NCBI GenBank assembly: GCA_963703155.1
Contig: OY969796.1
Span: forward strand, 3,509,875-3,573,874
DNA: 64,000 nt
Origin: an uncultured Chloroflexia bacterium
GTDB lineage: Bacteria; Chloroflexota; Limnocylindria; Limnocylindrales; CSP1-4
Direction of reading: 5' to 3'
The position numbers and the translations under genes are program-made. The notes under the pieces are model-generated. The model saw only the letters and a program-made list of their open reading frames with translations, was not told the DNA's origin and did no database searches. Shown one piece after another: positions 1 to 33,316 of the stretch. Every line of letters starts with the position of its first letter. The stretch's first letter is position 1.

Positions 1-2852
1 GGATGATCGCCACCTCCACCACGAGGTCGTCGAGGTTCTGGGGGCGCGACTTGGGCAGCGTCTGCATCTGCGCCCGGCTCTCCACCTGGAAGACGCCCAC
101 GGTGTCGGCGGCCTGGAGCATCTCGAAGACCTCGGGGATCTCCTCGGGGATGCGGTCAAGGTCCACGCAGAGCGCGCAGTCGTGCTCGATGAGCTGGATC
201 GTCTCGTCGATGGCCGCGAGCATGCCCAGACCGAGCAAGTCGAGCTTGATCAGCTTCATCGTCTCGACATCGCGCTTGTCGTACTGCACGACCACGCGGT
301 CCTTCATGGTGGCGCGCTCGATCGGCGCGATGTCGATCAGCGGCGCCGCGGTCACGAGCATCCCGCCCGAGTGGATGCTGAGGTGGCGCGGGAAGCCGTC
401 GATGCGGGCGCACAGCTCGAGCCAGCGCTCCCAGTCCGAGAGGTGGGCGACCGAGCCGCGATGCTCCGGGCTCGCGCCGGCGGGCGGCACGGGCGGGTCG
501 AGGCGGGCGACGCTGCTGACGTGGTCGGTGCGGGCGCCGCGGGCGGCTCGTGCTTCGCCCTCGGCCTCCTCGCCCTCGCCATCGATCGGGCCATCACCGC
601 GGGGCGGGTCGAAGCGGCGGTCCTCCGCCAGCAAGATCCCGGTCTCCGGGTCGAGGCGTCGGGCGACGGCTTGGTCCAGCTCGCGCTTCGCCTCCCGGTA
701 CGGCGCCCATCGCTCGGTCCCCCGCGCGCGCGTCGTACCCGGTCCCGCGACCCGCCCGGAGCCAGGCGACGCTTGCTGGCGTGTCGCCAGGACCGCCCTT
801 GTCCCCGCCGGAGCCGCCGCTCCGAATGGCCGGCGCGGAGCCAGGCGCGCCGGCCCAGGTGCCGTTGCCTGCCAGGCCGTCGGCCTCCCGTCGCAGCGCC
901 GGTCGCGGTGTCGGCTCGGGCGATGCGGCAGCGGGCGCCGTCGCGACCTCGTCTGGCATCGACACCGACCCGCCCGGCGCCAGCAGACCGGTCCGGATCC
1001 GCCCACCGCGCGCGTGGTTCAGCTGCCCCATCGCGTCGGTGAGGCCGCGGGTCTCGGCGAGCGTGGCAACCGGACCGGGACCCAGCACGCCCGTGCGCCC
1101 GGGCTCGGAACTGGTGTCGGCGTCGGCTGACGCCCCGCCCTCGCCCGGCCGCGCGAAGAACTGCGCAAACCCGCCCTCGGTCTCGAGGTCGCGCCGGACC
1201 ATCACGCTGTCGTACGTCTCGAGCGCCTTCGCCACCCGGTCCACCAGCGGCCGCGGGAACCCCAGCGCGTACCCCACCTCGCGCACCGCCGACCGCGCCC
1301 GGTACGTGACCAGGTTGCAGACCATCCCCGTGTGCTCCGGCCCGTACTTGCGGTAGACGTACTGGATCACCTCCTCCCGGCGCTCGGAGCTGAAGTCGAT
1401 GTCGACGTCGGGGTAGGCCGTCCGCCCCTCGTTGATGAACCGCTCGAACAGCAGCTCGTGGCGGATCGGGTCAACCCGGGTGATCCCCAGCACGTACGCC
1501 ACGATCGAGTCCGCCGCCGACCCCCGGCCCTGCGCCGGGATCCGGCTGCGCTTCGCGAACTGCATCAGGTCCCAGCAGATCAGGAAGAACTCGGCGAGGC
1601 CCGTCTTCTCGATGACGTCGAGCTCGTGGGCCAGCTGGCGCATGACCTGGGGCGTGAACGGGTGGTAGCGGCGGCGCGCGCCCTCCCAGCACAGCCCAGA
1701 GAGGTGGCTGAACGGCGTCTCGCCCCTCGGCACCTCGAAGCCCGGGAAGCGGTACCGCTCGAAGGTCAGCGCCACGCGGCAGGCGCCGGCGATCTCGACC
1801 GAGTTCGCGATGCCCTCGCGCCAGCCCCGCGCCAGGACGGGGTCAGCGGCGGTGGTGGCCGGCTCGCCCGGCGGCAGGGCCAGCAGGTCGTCCGCGTCCT
1901 TGAGGTACGACTCGCCGTCTGGGCGGCGGAGCTCGCGCAGGTCGGCCAGCGTCCGGCCGTGGCGGACGGCGGTGAGGACGTCGTGGAGCTCGCGGCCGTC
2001 GGGTCGGGCGTAGTGGACGTCGTTGGTGACGAGGGTGGGCAGCCCCAGCTCGTCGGCCAGGCGCGCGGTCTCGGACGCGAGCCAGTCGTCATCGGGGAGC
2101 AGGTGGTGCGAGAGCTCGAGGACGAAGCCGGCCGCGGCCGCCGACGACGAGGGGCCCGAGGCCGATGAAGCCGAGCCCGATGAGCCGAACAGCAGTGCGT
2201 AGCGCTCGGCCGCCGCACGCGCCCCCTCGCGGTCGCCGGCCCGCAGGCGCCGCGCGATCTCCCCGTGCCGGCACCCGGACAGCGCCACCAGCCCCTCGGC
2301 GTTCGCCGCCAGCAGCTCGTGCGTGAACTTGGGGACCGCCTTGGTCCCGGCCAGGTTCGCCCGCGACACCATCCGGCACAGGCTCCGCCAGCCGGCCTCG
2401 TTCCGGGCCAGCAGCACCAGGTGAGGGCCGCGCTCCGCCTCGCCGATCCCCCGGTGGTCCTCTTTGCGCACCTCGCGGTGCCCGGGCAGCCGGGCACGCT
2501 CCGGCCGCGGCCGGACCGGACGTCCCTCGACCGGGAGCGGAAGCTCCGGCTGCGGCATCGGCCGGCGTTTTCCTGGGCGCCATGCCTGCCGCCCAGGCAC
2601 GGCGATCCCGCCCGGGTCCGGCACGCACGCGTCCAGCAGCTCGATCTCGATGCCGACGACCGGGTGGATCCCCGCGGCCTCCGCGGCGCTCGTGAAGCGG
2701 ACCGCGCCGTACAGCCCGTTGTGGTCGGTGACCGCCAGCCCGGCCAGACCCAGCTCGGCAGCCCGCTCGGCGATGTCGTCGGGAGCCGACGCCCCGTCCA
2801 GGAACGAGAAGTGGGTGTGGCAGTGCAGCTCGGCGAAGGGGATGGTGGCCAC
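1..2852 (-). CDS. dnaE2: Error-prone DNA polymerase III alpha subunit DnaE2/ImuC, 5' two-thirds; the gene continues past the window start. The reading frame changes between about nt 600 and 1260 (frameshift or low-complexity insertion)
   Basis: ORF 594..2852 starts MATIPFAELHCHTHFSFLDGAS...LAVTDHNGLYGAVRF (PHP domain, DnaE2-type N-terminus). The minus-strand frame ending at nt 2 encodes ...DGFPRHLSIHSGGMLV...GVFQVESRAQMQTLPKSRPQNLDDLVVEVAII (polymerase catalytic region), but in a different frame from 594..2852. A LexA box lies 30 nt upstream of the ATG at 2852. Confidence 0.85.
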
Positions 2853-2882
2853 GCGTCGGTCTCCGGGGGCGGAGGCGAATGC

Positions 2883-2898
2883 TAGAACAGATGTTCTG
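2883..2898. promoter_or_regulatory. LexA (SOS, Cheo-type) box TAGAACAGATGTTCTG in the divergent dnaE2 / gyrI-like intergenic region
   Basis: GAAC-N4-GTTC palindrome. An identical half-site architecture recurs at 9226-9241 upstream of imuA'-imuB. Confidence 0.65.
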
Positions 2899-2999
2899 TT
2901 TCAGCAAATGCCAAAGGCCTCTGGCAGGCGCCACGCGAGCCCTCGAGGATCACGCGAGCGGCGGTCGCCACGGGGTGCGACAGCCCGAGGAGGCGTGCG

Positions 3000-3482
3000 A
3001 TGGAGCACGAGATCCATGTCACGGACCGGCCCGCGCTGCGAGTCGTCTCGAAGCGCGTGTCAGTCGCAATCGAGCTCATCGGGCCGACGCTGGGCCAGGC
3101 GTTCGGCGAGGTGTATGCGCTCATCGGCGCCGCCGAGGCAGAGGCGGCCGGTCCGCCGTTCGTCATCTACCACGCAATGCCGGCGCCGGGTCAGCCGATG
3201 AACATCGAGATCTGCGCGCCGGTCAGCGGCTCGCTTGAGCCGCACGACCCGTGGCGCCTCGTGGACCTGCCGGCGGGCACGTTCGCGACCCTGAAGCACG
3301 TCGGTCCGTACGACACCGTCGAGGCGACCTACAGCGCTCTGACCGCCTGGATCCCGGACCACGGGCTCGCCATCGCGGGGCCGCCGCGCGAGGTGTACCT
3401 GAGCGAGCCGTCCACGCCGCCCGAGCTCATCGAGACCATCGTCGAGTTCCCGGTGATGAGGCTGCCGGTCGCGGTGGGCTGA
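3000..3482 (+). CDS. GyrI-like (SbmC / AraC effector-binding fold) small-molecule-binding protein
   Basis: 160 aa, ...PPFVIYHAMPAPGQPMNIEICAPVSG... is typical of the GyrI-like domain. Divergent from dnaE2 across the LexA box. Confidence 0.7.
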   Translation: MEHEIHVTDRPALRVVSKRVSVAIELIGPTLGQAFGEVYALIGAAEAEAAGPPFVIYHAMPAPGQPMNIEICAPVSGSLEPHDPWRLVDLPAGTFATLKHVGPYDTVEATYSALTAWIPDHGLAIAGPPREVYLSEPSTPPELIETIVEFPVMRLPVAVG

Positions 3483-3506
3483 AGGCGCGGTGGGCTGAAG
3501 GCGCGG

Positions 3507-4223
3507 TCAGGTCTGGCGGACCTTGATCCCGAGCTGGGCCGCCAGGAGGGGTGCGAGGCCGATCAGCTGCTCAGGCGTCACCGTGGCGCCGCGCAGGCCC
3601 TCAACGCCGCGGACCGAGCCGATCGAGGCACCGGTGAGGTCCGTGCGGAGAAGCCGCGCCCCGGTCACGTCGAGCAGCTCGATCTCGCAGCCCTCGAAGG
3701 AGAGGTCGCGGGCCTCGACGGTGCCCAGGTCCAGCTCGCCCATCACGCATCCGTCGAACGCGACGCCGGTGAGCTTGGCGCCGGAGAGGTCCACGAGGTC
3801 GAGACGTCCGCCGCGGACACGCACCGACGTCCACGAGCCGCCGGTCGAGAGCAGCGCTCCCACGCGCCGGACGGTGACCAGCGTGTCGCGCCAGACCGAG
3901 TCGGCGGCGTCGAGGCTGGCGGCGCCCAGCTCGTCGAGTCGGCACTCGGAGATCCGCGCCCGCCGCATCGACACTCCGTCCAGCGCGCACCGCTCGATGT
4001 GGCAGCCGAGGAACGCGGCGTCGTCGGCGGCCTGACCCGCGAAGTCGAGGCCGGCGAAGTGCACTGCGTCGTAGTCGCCGTTCGCCTCCAGGCCCAGCCC
4101 CGTGAAGGTGGTGATCGTGTCGGGCAGGGCCACGTCGCGCGGCGGCTCCTGCCTGGCCGTCGGCTTCGCCCTCGACGTGGTGGTCAGCGATCCGCCGCGC
4201 TTCGCGCCCTCCGCCGGACCCAC
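3507..4223 (-). CDS. Pentapeptide-repeat protein (MfpA/Qnr-like DNA-mimic family)
   Basis: A(D/N)LxG-type pentapeptide repeats run through the ORF (…LDFAGQAADDAAFLGCHIERCALDGVSMRRARISECRLDELG…). GTG start 1 nt after the stop of the upstream HAD gene. Confidence 0.8.
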   Translation of the reverse strand: MGPAEGAKRGGSLTTTSRAKPTARQEPPRDVALPDTITTFTGLGLEANGDYDAVHFAGLDFAGQAADDAAFLGCHIERCALDGVSMRRARISECRLDELGAASLDAADSVWRDTLVTVRRVGALLSTGGSWTSVRVRGGRLDLVDLSGAKLTGVAFDGCVMGELDLGTVEARDLSFEGCEIELLDVTGARLLRTDLTGASIGSVRGVEGLRGATVTPEQLIGLAPLLAAQLGIKVRQT

Positions 4224-4224
4224 C

Positions 4225-4887
4225 TCAGGCCGCCTCGACCACGACGTCCTCGAGCGAATCGATGAGCAGATCCGCCCCCGCGCTGATCAGTGCGGGCCCC
4301 ACGCCTGGCCGGTCGGGCACGCCCACGACGAACAGGCCGGCCGCCCGCGCCGCCCGGACGCCCACGGGCGAGTCCTCGAACGCGATGGCGTGCTCGGGGT
4401 CAGTCGAGAGCAGCCGGCAGCCCTCGAGGAACACGGCCGGGTCGGGCTTCCCGGCCCCGAGGTCTGATCCGGACGCCACGATCTCGAACGCGTCGAGGAG
4501 CCCCACGCCGCGGAGCGCGAGCTCAACCAGCGGCGTTGTGGTGGATGTGGCGACGCCCAGCCGCACGCGCCCCACCAGCGACCGGACCAGCTCCGCCGCC
4601 CCGCGGTGGAGCGGCGCGCCGGCGAGGTACTTGGCGCGCATCAGGTCGAGCAGCTCCGCCTCGATCATTGCGGGGTCCATCCCGCCGAGCCGCTTCGAGT
4701 AGGCGCGGGCGGAGTCGGGGAGGGCACGGCCGTGGCTGGCCTCGCGGTCGGCTTCGGTCAGGTGGTCGCCATGGCGGGCGAGCAGCTCGGCTTCAGCCTC
4801 GATCCAGAGGGGCTCGGAATCGAGCAGGAGGCCGTCCATGTCGAACAGGACGGCGCGAAAGCGGCGGGGCAGGACGAGCGCGGTCAC
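4225..4887 (-). CDS. HAD-superfamily hydrolase, subfamily IA (beta-phosphoglucomutase-like)
   Basis: Motifs LFDMDGLLLDSE ... GKPDP ... FEDSPVG. Proposed GTG start at 4887 with a TACAAT -10-like hexamer 7 nt upstream (leaderless). The ORF remains open to 4995. Confidence 0.7.
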   Translation of the reverse strand: MTALVLPRRFRAVLFDMDGLLLDSEPLWIEAEAELLARHGDHLTEADREASHGRALPDSARAYSKRLGGMDPAMIEAELLDLMRAKYLAGAPLHRGAAELVRSLVGRVRLGVATSTTTPLVELALRGVGLLDAFEIVASGSDLGAGKPDPAVFLEGCRLLSTDPEHAIAFEDSPVGVRAARAAGLFVVGVPDRPGVGPALISAGADLLIDSLEDVVVEAA

Positions 4888-5000
4888 GTCCGGGGATTGT
4901 AGCGGTGGTCTCTTGGGCCTCCGACAGGCCCGAGCCAACGTGCTTGGGCCAACAGAGGCGCGAGCGCCACCAACCGCGCGCCTTGCGCGTCTCACGCGGC

Positions 5001-5132
5001 GTGGTCACCCAGTTCCAGCAAATCCTCGCCCGCCGACCTGTCCTGGACCTCGTGTTTCGGGTGGTGGCGATTGCGCTGCTCGCGCTGCTGATCCTCGTGG
5101 TTCTCCCCGCTCTGGCGACCTTGGCCGGCTGA
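5001..5132 (+). CDS. Possible third copy of a small hydrophobic single-TM peptide (43 aa, GTG start, no SD)
   Basis: ...ILARRPVLDLVFRVVAIALLALLILVVLPALATLAG*. Same R-R-x-x-D + ~20 hydrophobic architecture as the peptides at 5899 and 6221. The coding strand is uncertain. Confidence 0.3.
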   Translation: MVTQFQQILARRPVLDLVFRVVAIALLALLILVVLPALATLAG

Positions 5133-5301
5133 GCCGGCGACCATCTCCACGATGACTTCCTCGCGGCGGCGGCCGCAGGCGATGGCGGCCGCCGACCTGG
5201 CCCGACCGGCCGTGGGCCGGCGGACCGTGACTCGGACCCCCGTTGACCCGTCAGCGGGGGTCCCTCCTTGCACGGCGCGGTGCGAGGGCTACGATGCGGT
5301 C

Positions 5302-5877
5302 ATGCGATCCGTCTTGCGCCCCGTCGTGCGCCCCGTCGTGCGCCCCGCAATGGCGCTCGCCCTCGCCCTTGCCCTCGGGGCGTGCTCCGGGTCGCCGGCC
5401 GCTTCGCCGGCTGCCGGGGCAGCCCAAACGCCCGCCGCCTCGACCGGCGCTCGCACGACGGAGTCCGGTGCGGACTCGCCCGCGCCGGACGCGAGCGCTA
5501 CGGCCCCGCCTGCGCCCGTCACGACACCGGTCAGCACCACGCAGACGCCGTGGGGCCGGATCGTCGACGCCGTGCCGGCCGCCTTCCCGGTCTTCCCGGG
5601 CGCCACGGTGGCCGACGCGCCGCCGGACGGCGCGGTCAGCGGGGCGTGGGTGTCGAAGGCGTCCGTGTCCGAGGTCGCGACCTGGTATCACGACGCGCTC
5701 CTGGCGGCGAAGTTCGCCAAGGTGGATGTCGGCAGTGCGCTCGAGGACGGATCGCGAGTGATTGACGTCCAGGGCGACCTTCCCGAGTGCAAGGCGCAGG
5801 TGACGGTCAAGCCGCAGAAGGATTTCACGATGATCAGCGTTCTGGTCGGCGCCGGGTGCGCTGGCGCGAGCGGTTGA
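5302..5877 (+). CDS. Lipoprotein (signal peptide + lipobox LALGAC), Ala/Pro/Thr-rich linker
   Basis: MRSVLRPVVRPVVRPAMALALALALGACSG.... The N-terminal 12-bp tandem repeat (5316-5346) encodes VRPVVRPVVRP. Confidence 0.7.
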   Translation: MRSVLRPVVRPVVRPAMALALALALGACSGSPAASPAAGAAQTPAASTGARTTESGADSPAPDASATAPPAPVTTPVSTTQTPWGRIVDAVPAAFPVFPGATVADAPPDGAVSGAWVSKASVSEVATWYHDALLAAKFAKVDVGSALEDGSRVIDVQGDLPECKAQVTVKPQKDFTMISVLVGAGCAGASG

Positions 5878-6497: not shown

Positions 6498-6746
6498 TCA
6501 GTCGTACAGGCGCTCCAGGTGCCACGTCCCGGCGAGGCGGTCCAGGTACACCAGCGCGAGCCAGCTGCGGCCGACCACCTTGAAGTAGTCGCGGGCGATG
6601 GGCTCGCGCCACCACGCCTCCTCCACGCGCCAGCGGTTGCAGACCTCCACCGGCTCACGGCGCCCGTTCCAGGTGATCGCGACGAGATGGCCGGCGTCAT
6701 CGAGCTCGGCGTCCACGGCCGGGTGCTCGCGCAGGAGGCGGGTCAT
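6498..6746 (-). CDS. Small Trp-rich hypothetical protein (82 aa) translationally coupled to imuB
   Basis: MTRLLREHPAVDAELDDAGHLVAITWNGRREPVEVCNRWRVEEAWWREPIARDYFKVVGRSWLALVYLDRLAGTWHLERLYD. Its ATG overlaps the imuB stop in an ATGA arrangement. Confidence 0.55.
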   Translation of the reverse strand: MTRLLREHPAVDAELDDAGHLVAITWNGRREPVEVCNRWRVEEAWWREPIARDYFKVVGRSWLALVYLDRLAGTWHLERLYD

Positions 6747-8113
6747 CGGGCGAACCGTGCCTTGCGGGTATCGGCCGGCGCCATCGGAACGGCAGGGCGC
6801 GCGTCGGCCGGCGCCACTAGGCCAGCCCGAGCCTCGCCGGTCACCTCGACCCCCGCCACCGGCCGCCACGCCCAGCGCTCCTCGGCAAGCAGCGCCTCGG
6901 GATCGCCCACCTCCACGCGTCGCACCCGATCAGCCCCGAACGCGATCGCGAGCCTGGCCAGCTGCCACTCCAGCCGCGCTCCCCGAGCGGCCTGCGGCGT
7001 GAACAGCGGCAGTTGCTGGCCGCGGGCCGCATCGACCAGCCCGAGCTCGAGCTCGAGGCGCGCCACGGCAGCCGGCGGCGGTGACCCCTCGAGACGGGCG
7101 AACAGCAGCCGCTCGATCGCCTCGGCATCCGCGGTGGGCTCGGGAAAGCGCTGCTCGAAGCGGAGCTCGGACGGCGTCCCGCGCCGCGCGAACGCCAGAT
7201 CGTGGCTGATCGCAAGGCGCGCCAGCCCCGCCGCCTGGCCCCGCGCCGCCAGCTGGTCCGCGAGCGTGGCCGACAAGCGCCGGAGGACGAACCGCAGCGC
7301 GTCGAGCCCCTCGGCGGGCGGGTCCAGCGGCAGCGCCAGGGCCATCCGCTCGGCCGCATGGCGCGGGCGGAACCGCTCCGTCTCCTCGCCGCGCGCTCGG
7401 GCGTGGAGCCGCGCCCCCTCGTCGCCGAATCGTGCGACCAGCGCCGATCGCGGCAGCTCGGCCACCGAACCGATGGTCCGCAGCCCGAACCGCGCTAGGC
7501 GCGCCCGGATGTCCGGGTCCTTGGTCAGCAGCTTCGCCGGATAGGGGGCGAGGAACTGCTCGTCGTCGCCCGGCGGGACCAGCATCGGCGGGCCGCCCGG
7601 CTCCGCATACGCGGCGGCGACCCCGGCCGCGAACCCCGTCCCGGCGATCCCCGCATAGGACGGGCCGGGCAGCACCGGCGCCAGCGCCTCGACCATGCGC
7701 GCCACCAGCCGCTCCTCGACGCCCCACAGGCGCACCAGCCCATCGGCGTGGACGATCAGCCGGCCGAACGCCGGGTCCGACACGTCACTCGGCCCGGCGA
7801 TCCCGGGGCTGAACGTGGCGAGCCGCTCACAGGCGGCCTCGACCGCAGCCCGATCCTCGTCAGGCGCCGGGTCCAGGAAGACCGCCTCGGGCGCCATGCG
7901 GTGCGCCGACCCCAACGGGATCCCCCGCCGGACGCCGAGCGCCCGGGCGAGCGGATCTGCGTCGAGGACTGTCCCGTCCGTCCAGGGCTGCCCGCCAAGG
8001 ACGATCGGGCCGGTTGGCCACGAGCCGGAGATGGCGCCGCCCGCCTCGTGGCGAGCCCGGGCGAGGCGGAGTGGCAGGTGCGGCCAGAACAGGTAGAGCA
8101 GACGCATGGGCAT
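6743..8113 (-). CDS. imuB: ImuB, catalytically inactive Y-family polymerase-like mutasome subunit
   Basis: Starts MPMRLLYLFWPHLPLRLA.... The layout is Y-family/UmuC-like but lacks the catalytic acidic triad. Immediately downstream of imuA'. Confidence 0.8.
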   Translation of the reverse strand: MPMRLLYLFWPHLPLRLARARHEAGGAISGSWPTGPIVLGGQPWTDGTVLDADPLARALGVRRGIPLGSAHRMAPEAVFLDPAPDEDRAAVEAACERLATFSPGIAGPSDVSDPAFGRLIVHADGLVRLWGVEERLVARMVEALAPVLPGPSYAGIAGTGFAAGVAAAYAEPGGPPMLVPPGDDEQFLAPYPAKLLTKDPDIRARLARFGLRTIGSVAELPRSALVARFGDEGARLHARARGEETERFRPRHAAERMALALPLDPPAEGLDALRFVLRRLSATLADQLAARGQAAGLARLAISHDLAFARRGTPSELRFEQRFPEPTADAEAIERLLFARLEGSPPPAAVARLELELGLVDAARGQQLPLFTPQAARGARLEWQLARLAIAFGADRVRRVEVGDPEALLAEERWAWRPVAGVEVTGEARAGLVAPADARPAVPMAPADTRKARFAR

Positions 8114-8996
8114 CGATCGATGGGTGGGGGCCTTTCCGATCAGTAAGGGCGACGGGGCCGGGCGGGGCGGGCGGCTGGTGGGCGGGTGTCGCCGCAGACC
8201 CGGGCGGGGCCGACAGGGCGACGGGGCCGGGCGGGGAGGCAGGGCCCTCGAGCCCGGCGAGCAGCTCTGGGCGCCCGAGGCAGCCGTCCCGCGGGCCGCC
8301 CTCGGCGTAGAGGATGGCCAGCTCGGCGTCACGACCGGGCGGGCCATACCGGTTGCGCGCGACGGTGGCCCGGCACCGCTGCCCGACCACGTCCCGGCCC
8401 AGCCGGATCCAGCCTGAGCGGCGCAACTCGAGCCGCAGCCCGCTCGCCTCGTCCACCGCGGCCGCCAGCCCGCGACCCAACCCGTCGGGCGCCAGCACCA
8501 CGAGCAGCGTCCCCGCCCGCCGCGCCAGCGCCGCCAGCCGACCGAGCCGATCCCCCACCCGCGCCCCGGCGACCGCGGGGTCCCGGCCCTCGGGCAGGTC
8601 CAGCACCAGGAGGTCCACCGTGCGGGCGGCGAGCAGCGAGCCCGCCAGCCCCAGCGCCTCCTCGAGGTCCTGCGGTACGAGCACCACCAGCCACTCCGGG
8701 CGGACGCCGCGCGCCACCGCCTCCACGGGGTCGAACGCACGGGCGAGGTCAAGCCAGGCCACGATGGACCCGGCGGCCTGGGCCTCCGCCGCCACCCGCA
8801 GGGCGAGCGTGGTGCGTCCTGAGCTGGCACCTCCGCGGAGCGCCACGGTGGCCGAGCGCGGCAGCCCGCCCGTTCCCAGCACGGCGTCCAGCGCGGCGAA
8901 GCCCGTGGGGACCACCCGGCCGTCCTCGTGCGCGGCCACGCCCGGGCGTCCGGGCGCGAACGGGTTGCTGGGCGCTGGCGCCGGGGCGACAGGCAC
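7860..8996 (-). CDS. imuA: ImuA' (RecA/SulA-fold SOS mutasome subunit). The C-terminal ~110 codons are Pro/Ala-rich low complexity and overlap imuB
   Basis: ...VVPTGFAALDAVLGTGGLPRSATVALRGGASSGRTTLALRVAAEAQAAGSIVAWLDLARAFDP... resembles ImuA/SulA-like RecA-fold proteins. The first in-frame stop is at 7860. Confidence 0.7.
   Translation of the reverse strand: MPVAPAPAPSNPFAPGRPGVAAHEDGRVVPTGFAALDAVLGTGGLPRSATVALRGGASSGRTTLALRVAAEAQAAGSIVAWLDLARAFDPVEAVARGVRPEWLVVLVPQDLEEALGLAGSLLAARTVDLLVLDLPEGRDPAVAGARVGDRLGRLAALARRAGTLLVVLAPDGLGRGLAAAVDEASGLRLELRRSGWIRLGRDVVGQRCRATVARNRYGPPGRDAELAILYAEGGPRDGCLGRPELLAGLEGPASPPGPVALSAPPGSAATPAHQPPAPPGPVALTDRKGPHPSIDAHASALPVLAAPATPPRPGSPRGGRRHLRLVANRPDRPWRAALDGRDSPRRRSARPGARRPAGDPVGVGAPHGARGGLPGPGA
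8146..8235. repeat. 22-bp direct repeat AGGGCGACGGGGCCGGGCGGGG (8146-8167 and 8214-8235) inside the imuA' tail / imuB start region; encodes PPGPVAL twice
   Basis: Exact repeat seen in the sequence. Confidence 0.6.
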
Positions 8997-9225
8997 GAAG
9001 GCGGGAGAGGCGGAGGCGCGCGGGAGCCCAGCGTGACGGCCCCGCCCTCGGCTGCCATGGCTTCGGCCAGCTCGTCATCGATCGGCAGGGGCGCCACTGC
9101 GAGCGCGCCATCGACCACCGGCGCGGTGTCTCCCCAGCGGCGTGGAGCGGCCGCGCCCCAGCGTGCCTGGAGGGTGGCGAGGGCCTGGGAGACATCGGAT
9201 GCTCGGGTCATCGGACGTCTAATCA

Positions 9226-9241
9226 TAGAACGCATGTTCTA
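9226..9241. promoter_or_regulatory. LexA (SOS) box TAGAACGCATGTTCTA upstream of imuA'-imuB
   Basis: Same half-sites as the dnaE2 box (TAGAAC-N4-GTTCT). Overlaps the ATG of an alternative upstream ORF that starts at 9235. Confidence 0.65.
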
Positions 9242-32619: not shown

Positions 32620-33316
32620 GCACTCTCAGGGACAGCGTGTCCGTGACTCGGTGACCAGTCGCGCGCGCCTCGGCGGGCTACCATCGCGCCAAGAGCGATC
32701 CCGCGACCCGCGCTGCCGACCCCCTCCCCCGTCCCCGCAATGAGGGCGTGACCACCGCTGGATCCCGCTCGCCCATCCACCGCGGCGCCCTGCGCGTCGG
32801 TCTGGGGCTGATCGCCTGGCTGCTCGTGATCAGGGACTCCGCGCCAAGGTCACCCTGCGATACCGCGCGGACCTGTTGCCGTGCTTCGTGGTGCTGGCGA
32901 TGGCCGGGCGGTACCGAGCGGCTGCACACGGGCTAGCTCGTGATCTCGCTCTCGCTGCTGGCATGACACCGCATCATGCCGGGTTTCGGCCCCGCGGCGG
33001 CGGACGCGAAGGGGCCCCACCGCGATGGTGTCGCCCGCCTGATGGTGCGGCTCCGAGACCGCCTCCGGGTGAGCGCCTCCGTCCGCGCGGCGAGGCCCCA
33101 AGAACGCCGGACGGCCAGAGGTGAGCCGCCGGCAGGTCGACGACCCGGAACGCCCGGGCATCGCCGAGTGCTGGCTCCGGCGGCGCTGCCCGCCCGAGCC
33201 CGAAGTGGATCGCGGAACTGACGTTCATCGTCCGATCCCGGCCGGGCGCCAGCTGCAGCACCCTGATGATCGGGATCAGGCGGATCCGTCGCTGAGTCTC
33301 ACGCACTCCGCGGGCA

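Follow-up and report, generated by a model that had tools for sequence, protein, structure and literature searches.

The locus studied here raises the question of whether one LexA box controls two divergent genes or only one of them. The window, a 64,000-nucleotide (nt) stretch of contig OY969796.1 from an uncultured bacterium of the Chloroflexota class Limnocylindria, carries the LexA box TAGAACAGATGTTCTG at 2883-2898, between the polymerase gene dnaE2 and a gene for a GyrI-like protein. The first-pass annotation of this DNA placed the box 30 nt from dnaE2 and about 100 nt from the GyrI-like gene, and both positions were confirmed: the dnaE2 start codon is 30 nt away and the GyrI-like start codon, on the opposite side, 101 nt. 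The annotation also held that the box serves both genes and that, with a nearby pentapeptide-repeat protein (PRP) gene, they form an SOS-linked gyrase-protection module, which our comparisons do not bear out. The palindrome is strongly supported, from sequence, as a bona fide LexA-type SOS operator of dnaE2 of the GAAC-N4-GTTC class, and it is probably not a repressor site of the GyrI-like gene. We consider it likely that the box belongs to dnaE2 and that the neighbouring genes are lineage-specific passengers with promoters of their own; shared SOS control of these neighbours appears unlikely. The features around the box are the following.

1..2852, minus strand: dnaE2 (imuC), GTG start at 2852 (MATIPFAELHCH...); Pfam PHP 3.7e-37 and DNA_pol3_alpha 1.2e-56
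2879..2884, minus strand: predicted dnaE2 -10 hexamer TAGCAT, within the column-conserved GTTC-TA(t/g)nAT of 85 aligned promoters
2883..2898, no strand: LexA (SOS) box, predicted operator of the dnaE2 promoter, reading CAGAACATCTGTTCTA in dnaE2 orientation
2902..2907, minus strand: predicted dnaE2 -35 hexamer TTGCTG, where aligned loci have conserved cTTGcc / CTGGnc
2911..2950, plus strand: putative own promoter block of the GyrI-like gene, with conserved CCAAAGGCCTCTGGC (2911-2925), -35-like CTGGCA (2921-2926) and -10-like GAGGAT (2945-2950)
3000-3482, plus strand: GyrI-like gene, 160 amino acids (aa), single domain; PF06445 9.9e-22 over the full length

The box motif is not common at random in the window. 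The core GAAC-N4-GTTC was found three times against 0.48 expected, and the extended motif TAGAAC-N4-GTTCTA, with up to two mismatches allowed, was found twice against 0.11 expected, at 2883-2898 and at 9226-9241 upstream of imuA'. A third core, CGGAACTGACGTTCAT at 33215-33226, was set aside as probably due to chance, as it lacks the flanking consensus and has no clear promoter context or downstream gene. In Firmicutes and Actinobacteria, LexA recognises GAAC-N4-GTTC, and variations are reported for Chloroflexi (PMC4951493, citing Fernandez de Henestrosa 2002 on Dehalococcoides).

We infer the dnaE2 promoter hexamers, the transcription starts and LexA binding from sequence. Across the box-aligned dnaE2 promoters, GTTC-TA(t/g)nAT is nearly invariant, with a -35-like cTTGcc / CTGGnc 17 nt upstream. 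In the window, the -35 and -10 are likewise 17 nt apart, the box lies inside this spacer, and its final two bases are the first two bases of the -10 (a TAnnAT hexamer), which, for the promoter as predicted, is classic repressor geometry. With the box occupying the spacer and two box bases also belonging to the -10, LexA bound there would exclude RNA polymerase from the dnaE2 promoter, and RecA-stimulated self-cleavage of LexA would relieve the repression. The two halves of the box differ in their variation. The distal half drifts among TAGAAC, TCGAAC, CAGAAC, and GCGAAC, whereas the dnaE2-proximal half, GTTCTA, is nearly invariant because the terminal TA of the box doubles as the start of the -10.

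The assignment of the box to dnaE2 was then weighed against its conservation in relatives. The closest 80 dnaE2 loci in the genome collection all belong to Chloroflexota, class Limnocylindria, and to metagenome-assembled genomes, the best being 94% identical; the window thus comes from a high-GC member of Chloroflexota, and an actinobacterial origin was rejected. The comparison set comprised 79 loci of GTDB species representatives with a placeable dnaE2 start, and 85 distinct loci were aligned overall; individual loci are cited below by L numbers. The box, as T[AC]GAAC-N4-GTTCTA, was found before dnaE2 in 78 of those 79 representatives (84 of 85 when every distinct locus is counted), at a distance from the start codon of 14-91 nt, mostly about 45 nt. 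It is kept on the dnaE2 promoter regardless of which gene lies upstream, which argues for a dnaE2 operator within a mutasome split into imuA'-imuB and dnaE2. Many loci without the HAD, PRP, and GyrI-like genes have a lipoprotein-like gene divergent to dnaE2, at 81-339 nt from the box; a divergent gene beside the box is therefore the rule and is uninformative alone. The remaining features of the locus, including the other mutasome genes and the genes between them and dnaE2, are listed here.

3507-4223, minus strand: PRP gene, 238 aa, second gene of the HAD-PRP operon
4225-4887, minus strand: HAD-IA hydrolase (beta-phosphoglucomutase / sugar-phosphatase-like), 4.5e-24, first gene of the HAD-PRP operon
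5152-5877, plus strand: lipoprotein-like open reading frame (ORF) with no family assignment, on the strand opposite to dnaE2
6743-8113, minus strand: imuB, Y-family-like polymerase; Pfam IMS 8.2e-09, syntenic orthologues 72-92% identical
~7860-9211, minus strand: imuA' (RecA-like); Pfam RecA 8.7e-28
9226-9241, no strand: second LexA box TAGAACGCATGTTCTA, a perfect box and predicted operator of the imuA'-imuB promoter

Where the sequence extends as far as imuA', essentially all loci show exactly two consensus boxes, of which the first precedes imuA' and the second dnaE2; in these loci no consensus box was found before the HAD, PRP, or lipoprotein-like gene. Through the operators at 2883-2898 and 9226-9241, SOS would control a translesion mutasome split into ImuA'-ImuB and DnaE2, and this two-operator arrangement would be common to the whole class Limnocylindria. 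The imuA' promoter (9209-9241) apparently reads TTGACG, 16 nt, TATGAT, and its spacer contains the LexA box. The probable imuA' ATG (9211) follows the predicted transcription start by only about 4 nt, and the imuA' mRNA may be leaderless.

The GyrI-like gene appears to have transcription signals of its own. We compared the upstream regions of about 45 distinct GyrI-like loci, with 51-100% protein identity, and most of them share one layout: TTCG-N3-CGAAGGnCTCTGGC, a spacer of about 19 nt, nAnnAT, a leader of about 45 nt, and GAGGAGG, the last being the Shine-Dalgarno sequence of the window gene at 2987-2993. In about 40 homologous loci, the CTCTGG of the block is found at -78 to -83 from the ATG, whether the LexA box is present or absent. 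The spacer is fixed in length (18-20 nt) and not conserved in sequence, and the -10-like nAnnAT occurs as CACGAT, CACCAT, GAGGAT, CAGGAT, TAGCAT, and others. The conservation of the block exceeds that of an ordinary -35, and CTGGnC-type -35 elements are also present in many dnaE2 promoters of Limnocylindria. Across 157 loci, each block found preceded a GyrI-like gene, with a single copy per locus, and the window held no convincing second copy. It probably represents a -35 with an upstream operator-like palindrome, followed by a -10, and is probably bound by a factor. A MerR-type promoter, considered in view of the long spacer of 18-20 nt here, was rejected because the spacer sequence is not conserved and hence offers no operator dyad; a sigma-54 or extracytoplasmic function (ECF)-type reading of CTCTGGC...CACGAT was also rejected, as the -12 GC and CGT elements are not conserved. 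The block also occurs in L085, L089-L091, and L095-L131, about 80 nt before each GyrI-like ATG, across Chloroflexota.

The position of the LexA box relative to this block, and its absence elsewhere in the family, bear directly on the question. With the GyrI-like transcription start predicted near 2957, the centre of the box would fall near -67; this is beyond the core promoter, some 23 bp upstream of the -35. About 30 GyrI-like loci lie in unrelated contexts (e.g., with transporter, ferredoxin, aminotransferase, or integrase neighbours); no GAAC-N4-GTTC was found within 200 nt upstream in these loci, and the context-unrelated homologues, at 51-64% identity, keep the block at -78 to -83. Among GyrI-like copies, the LexA box is limited to the dnaE2-adjacent ones, where it always lies 112-119 nt before the ATG. 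The idea of one box serving both genes therefore loses ground: the unit of box and dnaE2 promoter is class-wide, and the GyrI-like family has a putative promoter block that is kept in about 30 box-less loci. An ancestral TTCG-N3-CGAA palindrome has lost its left half, TTCG, in the dnaE2-adjacent copies, where GCAAGAG/GCAAAT, matching the dnaE2 -35 in reverse complement, stands instead; this suggests that the dnaE2 and GyrI-like promoters were fused back to back. The lost TTCG half could be merely an insertion scar or could be the loss of an ancestral regulator site.

The distribution of the genes points in the same direction. Upstream sequence of 2.5 kb or more was available for 73 loci; among these, imuB was found in 66, the lipoprotein-like gene in 48 (the commonest occupant of the imuB-dnaE2 gap), the HAD gene in 21, the PRP gene in 6, and the GyrI-like gene in 3. 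A metagenome search with the single GyrI-like protein as query returned nothing, and with an alignment as query it returned 66 loci. Metagenomic contigs contributed extra dnaE2-adjacent GyrI-like copies at 61-73% identity (L081-84, L086-87, and L092-94), of which those in L086 and L092 have no PRP alongside. In a neighbour-joining tree of the DnaE2 N-terminal region, the GyrI-positive loci all fall in one small clade. The same clade includes L042 (HAD-PRP only), L005 (HAD only), and L002, all without the GyrI-like gene, and L002 retains a 26-aa GyrI remnant and a degenerate promoter block. On the tree, this distribution suggests that the GyrI-like gene was gained once and lost three times, with the box and dnaE2 unchanged. 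Orthologous loci, in which the first-pass annotation asked whether the GyrI-like and PRP genes stay beside dnaE2, mostly do not keep the grouping, which is confined to that small clade.

We therefore describe the imuB-dnaE2 gap as a variable slot, whose genes should be treated as ordinary lineage-specific cargo until shown otherwise by more than their position. In this clade, the slot holds the lipoprotein-like gene, the HAD-PRP operon, and the GyrI-like gene, each probably with its own transcription signals. The GyrI-like gene would have arrived once, back-to-back with the dnaE2 promoter, bringing its own block (CTCTGGC, 19 nt, nAnnAT). In L081-L084 (about 8.3-10.1 kb, locus coordinates), the slot also contains an ArsR-family regulator and a cation-diffusion-facilitator efflux gene, so it takes diverse cargo. 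At 3470-3507 of the window, an exact 16-bp tandem duplication (CGCGGTGGGCTGAAGG, 2.4 copies) runs across the GyrI-like stop codon and occupies the 24-nt gap between this stop and the convergent PRP stop; in relatives, this gap is 7-9 nt.

The identity of the GyrI-like protein was assessed by sequence and structure. NCBIfam gave no family assignment. In the PDB profile search, CTR107/Rho-tag, including engineered forms of CTR107, ranked best (1e-20 to 4e-22), followed by the EcmrR effector domain, CtaZ, and lin2189. SbmC had no match by phmmer at E <= 1, and by profile search its match was partial and out of register (E = 0.085; query 96-151 against SbmC 14-72). The AlphaFold model, with a predicted local distance difference test (pLDDT) score of 90, superposed on CTR107 with a TM-score of 0.85-0.89 and a root-mean-square deviation of about 2 A; next in the structure ranking were EcmrR-CTD, then CtaZ (closthioamide-bound) and STM3175 (albicidin resistance), and SbmC was rank 19 in Foldseek with 14% identity. 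As judged from sequence and model, the protein is a putative CTR107-type small-molecule binder and not an SbmC/GyrI orthologue. Like E. coli SbmC/GyrI (PDB 1JYH), it is a stand-alone protein of about 157-160 aa with the GyrI-like fold (a duplicated beta-alpha-beta-beta unit), and its gene is physically near a LexA box; however, its box misses the predicted promoter, the majority of its family has no box, and there is no significant sequence match. CTR107 (Chlorobium tepidum) and SAV2435 (PDB 5KAX, 9RTL, 9RTM) are closest in both sequence and structure, with the same size and a single domain, although the Limnocylindria protein is only 24-25% identical to them and its ligand binding is suggested by analogy.

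CTR107 binds multiple drugs, rhodamines and further planar cations among them (PMC12814168). Hydrolysis of DNA-alkylating cyclopropanoids is known from some GyrI-like proteins, the YtkR7/lin2189 subfamily, and needs two glutamates and an aromatic cage; the catalytic pair in lin2189 is E157 and E185, and SbmC, BmrR, and Rob lack these features (PMC5684135). The match to lin2189 was weak (5e-5, C-terminal half only; TM-score 0.65-0.70, 13-14% identity). The invariant E131-x-Y133 of the GyrI-like protein probably corresponds to lin2189 E185-x-Y187, which would cover one of the two catalytic glutamates. By analogy with these relatives, the best-supported function is the sequestration of a xenobiotic small molecule, or possibly its turnover, and direct gyrase binding is less likely.

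The PRP gene shares its strand with dnaE2, is convergent to the GyrI-like gene, and does not adjoin the LexA box; its strand and convergence imply at least three transcription units at the locus, not one operon. The first-pass description of the two genes as flanking dnaE2 consequently holds for the GyrI-like gene, which is divergent at the box, and not for the PRP gene. The coupling of the repeat protein to the HAD hydrolase, also described there, stands: 1 nt separates the HAD stop codon from the PRP start codon, the junction is conserved at 1-4 nt and is tight in L081 and L084 too, and the PRP is predicted to be translationally coupled to the hydrolase. No LexA box was found upstream of the HAD-PRP operon, even with 4 of 12 mismatches allowed.

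The AlphaFold model of the PRP (pLDDT 91) shows a beta-helix at residues 50-205, a C-terminal helix at 217-230, and a disordered N-terminus. Its top structural matches in the PDB were EfsQnr, AlbG, QnrB1, and MfpA, which indicates a Qnr/MfpA-like architecture. With MfpA, Qnr, EfsQnr, AlbG, and McbG it shares a right-handed quadrilateral beta-helix of about 190 residues (~8-9 coils) and a C-terminal (dimerisation) helix; the core is acidic (isoelectric point 4.7), as in Qnr/MfpA-type proteins, and the helix ends in the shared ...QLxxLAPLLAAxLGIxV, here as a C-terminus ...LRGATVTPEQLIGLAPLLAAQLGIKV that is conserved within the family. However, the PRP is only 16-21% identical to these proteins, carries some 45 additional disordered residues at its N-terminus, and reached 17-28 bits against the NCBIfam Qnr/MfpA models, missing their cut-offs of 240-500. 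Its partner gene is a HAD hydrolase instead of the MfpB GTPase of MfpA, and, unlike qnrB, its operon has no LexA box. The family, with 78 proteins, is a small one and is essentially confined to Limnocylindria, and homologues at 47-55% identity occur in unrelated contexts without HAD or dnaE2. The assignment of the two proteins to GyrI-like and MfpA/Qnr-like classes was thus right as to PF06445 and the beta-helix fold, whereas SbmC orthology was not found and no Qnr/MfpA threshold was reached. In L159 (2589-6675), three genes, two of them weakly GTPase-like (MMR_HSR1 / dynamin-like), immediately precede a PRP homologue at 49% identity, an arrangement that loosely recalls the mycobacterial mfpB-mfpA pairing.

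Under a shared operator, LexA would repress both dnaE2 and the divergent GyrI-like gene, and the PRP would complete an SOS-linked gyrase-protection module. Several observations speak for this explanation and weigh against ours. All dnaE2-adjacent GyrI-like loci (61-100% protein identity) keep the box at a fixed distance from the ATG, 112-119 nt, and 10 of the 11 distinct GyrI-like loci with at least 61% identity adjoin dnaE2. The ancestral upstream half-palindrome is missing in exactly these copies, and the loss of its left half could mark a change of regulator. The structural relatives of the GyrI-like protein include binders of gyrase poisons (CtaZ/closthioamide and STM3175/albicidin), those of the PRP are the gyrase-protecting EfsQnr, AlbG, QnrB1, and MfpA, and both E. 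coli sbmC and plasmid-borne qnrB are LexA-regulated. Co-regulation is frequent among conserved divergent pairs, and E. coli uvrA-ssb is a precedent for a single SOS box shared between divergent genes. Moreover, simple sigma-70 and terminator scans of 2750-5250 gave no match, so our promoter calls rest on comparative conservation, and the GyrI-like hexamers CTGGCA / GAGGAT match the sigma-70 consensus weakly. Nevertheless, we regard the shared operator as unlikely: the box centre, about 67 bp upstream of the predicted GyrI-like start, is outside the -35/-10; the identical promoter block is present in about 30 homologous loci without any box; the PRP belongs to a separate, convergent, box-less operon; three losses of the GyrI-like gene in the clade left the box and dnaE2 in place; and the protein is no SbmC orthologue. 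Direct LexA control of the GyrI-like gene taken by itself seems improbable on the same comparisons. With the PRP operon box-less and the GyrI-like box outside the predicted promoter, a coherent SOS-linked gyrase-protection module is very doubtful. We also give little credence to regulon capture, in which a CTR107-like gene, inserted back-to-back with the dnaE2 promoter in one Limnocylindria clade, would have lost the left half of TTCG-N3-CGAA and been rewired to LexA, forming with the Qnr-like PRP an SOS-linked defence against gyrase or DNA poisons beside the mutasome. If true, such a module would be without precedent outside Proteobacteria and Actinobacteria, with regulon capture by promoter fusion, and this minority reading would show how a resistance gene enters the SOS regulon.

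Linkage without common regulation was also considered. The slot might be a functional island selected for genes against genotoxic agents and topoisomerase-directed xenobiotics, each with its own promoter, so that linkage would reflect co-selection. The candidate cargo (a drug-sequestering GyrI-like protein, a Qnr-like PRP, and a HAD phosphatase) has resistance proteins as structural neighbours, the HAD gene recurs in the slot (21/73), the PRP gene is present in 6/73 and in metagenomic loci, the GyrI-like gene in one clade, and the short HAD-PRP junction is conserved. However, the commonest occupant of the slot is the unrelated lipoprotein-like gene, the ArsR/cation-efflux pair is among the other cargo, PRP and GyrI-like homologues occur elsewhere in unrelated contexts, and both the ligand and the gyrase interaction are suggested by analogy; we hold this explanation to be doubtful, though conceivable. 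A different objection concerns the block itself, which might be a structured, riboswitch-like leader RNA, with the true promoter further upstream and overlapping the LexA box in this clade. The block is conserved beyond what a normal -35 shows, and it moves together with the gene at constant spacing to the ATG; its GCCUCU can pair with the Shine-Dalgarno GGAGGC, and many leaders have a hairpin immediately before the Shine-Dalgarno sequence. This is very unlikely, given that RNAalifold gave only a 5-pair interaction between CUCU and the Shine-Dalgarno sequence (-0.88 kcal/mol) with no covariation, folding energies equalled those of shuffled sequence (mean z about 0), no Rfam family matched the upstream block, nAnnAT behind a 19-nt spacer of fixed length and unconserved sequence is typical of a promoter, and no conserved -10-like element was found between box and block in the dnaE2-adjacent copies. 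Our preferred reading thus remains a dnaE2 operator beside passengers that carry their own promoters.

Limnocylindria is an abundant uncultured class of Chloroflexota in soil and freshwater, and the sequence evidence extends the SOS-controlled ImuA'-ImuB-DnaE2 mutasome, with a Gram-positive-type LexA box, to this class. LexA-regulated dnaE2 beside imuA'-imuB is already known; the new element is the Limnocylindria case with its precise overlap of operator and promoter. Compared with the actinobacterial LexA-regulated cassette (e.g., Mycobacterium tuberculosis Rv3395c-Rv3394c and dnaE2), the three proteins, the split into two transcription units with a box each, and the core operator motif are the same. 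By contrast, the host here is a member of Chloroflexota, class Limnocylindria; the operator has the extended form T[AC]GAAC-N4-GTTCTA, whose promoter-proximal TA also starts the -10; the two units are only 2-6 kb apart, with the variable slot between them; and DnaE2 has a hypervariable insert of 300-600 aa. The locus is also a cautionary case, in that a LexA box close to a divergent gene is no proof of regulon membership: proximity is no evidence here because the unit of box and promoter is conserved independently of the neighbour. The block upstream of CTR107-like genes offers a minor new lead to a regulator in Chloroflexota.

The mutasome genes showed further features. ImuA' (RecA), ImuB (IMS), and DnaE2 (PHP and pol III alpha) are encoded together, with the full domain set in L001; in known systems, ImuB has no catalytic function. 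The window contains the N-terminal portion of dnaE2, about 950 codons, and the gene continues beyond the window start. This portion is 94% identical to a continuous 1513-aa ORF in L001. An apparent frame change was observed in dnaE2 between 735 and 715 and another in imuA' between 9041 and 8966; both fall within GC-rich low-complexity linkers, and in both cases the L001 ORF is continuous. These frame changes could be assembly or homopolymer errors in GC-rich runs, or they could be real and reflect incipient decay of the mutasome. The imuA' frame extends about 130-250 nt beyond the imuB start codon (MPMRLLYLFWPHLPL...), over 7860-8113, and does likewise in L001 and L081, which suggests that either the two genes share a long, conserved overlap or one boundary, the imuA' stop or the imuB start, is wrongly set. 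Limnocylindria DnaE2 proteins range from 1363 to 1689 aa. Their hypervariable insert is rich in Gly, Pro, Ala, and Arg and splits DNA_pol3_alpha (profile 1-181, then the rest); this was observed at about 600-1200 in the window and in the dnaE2 regions L001:10001-14539 and L081:1487-5857, and a second stretch enlarges the HHH_6 region.

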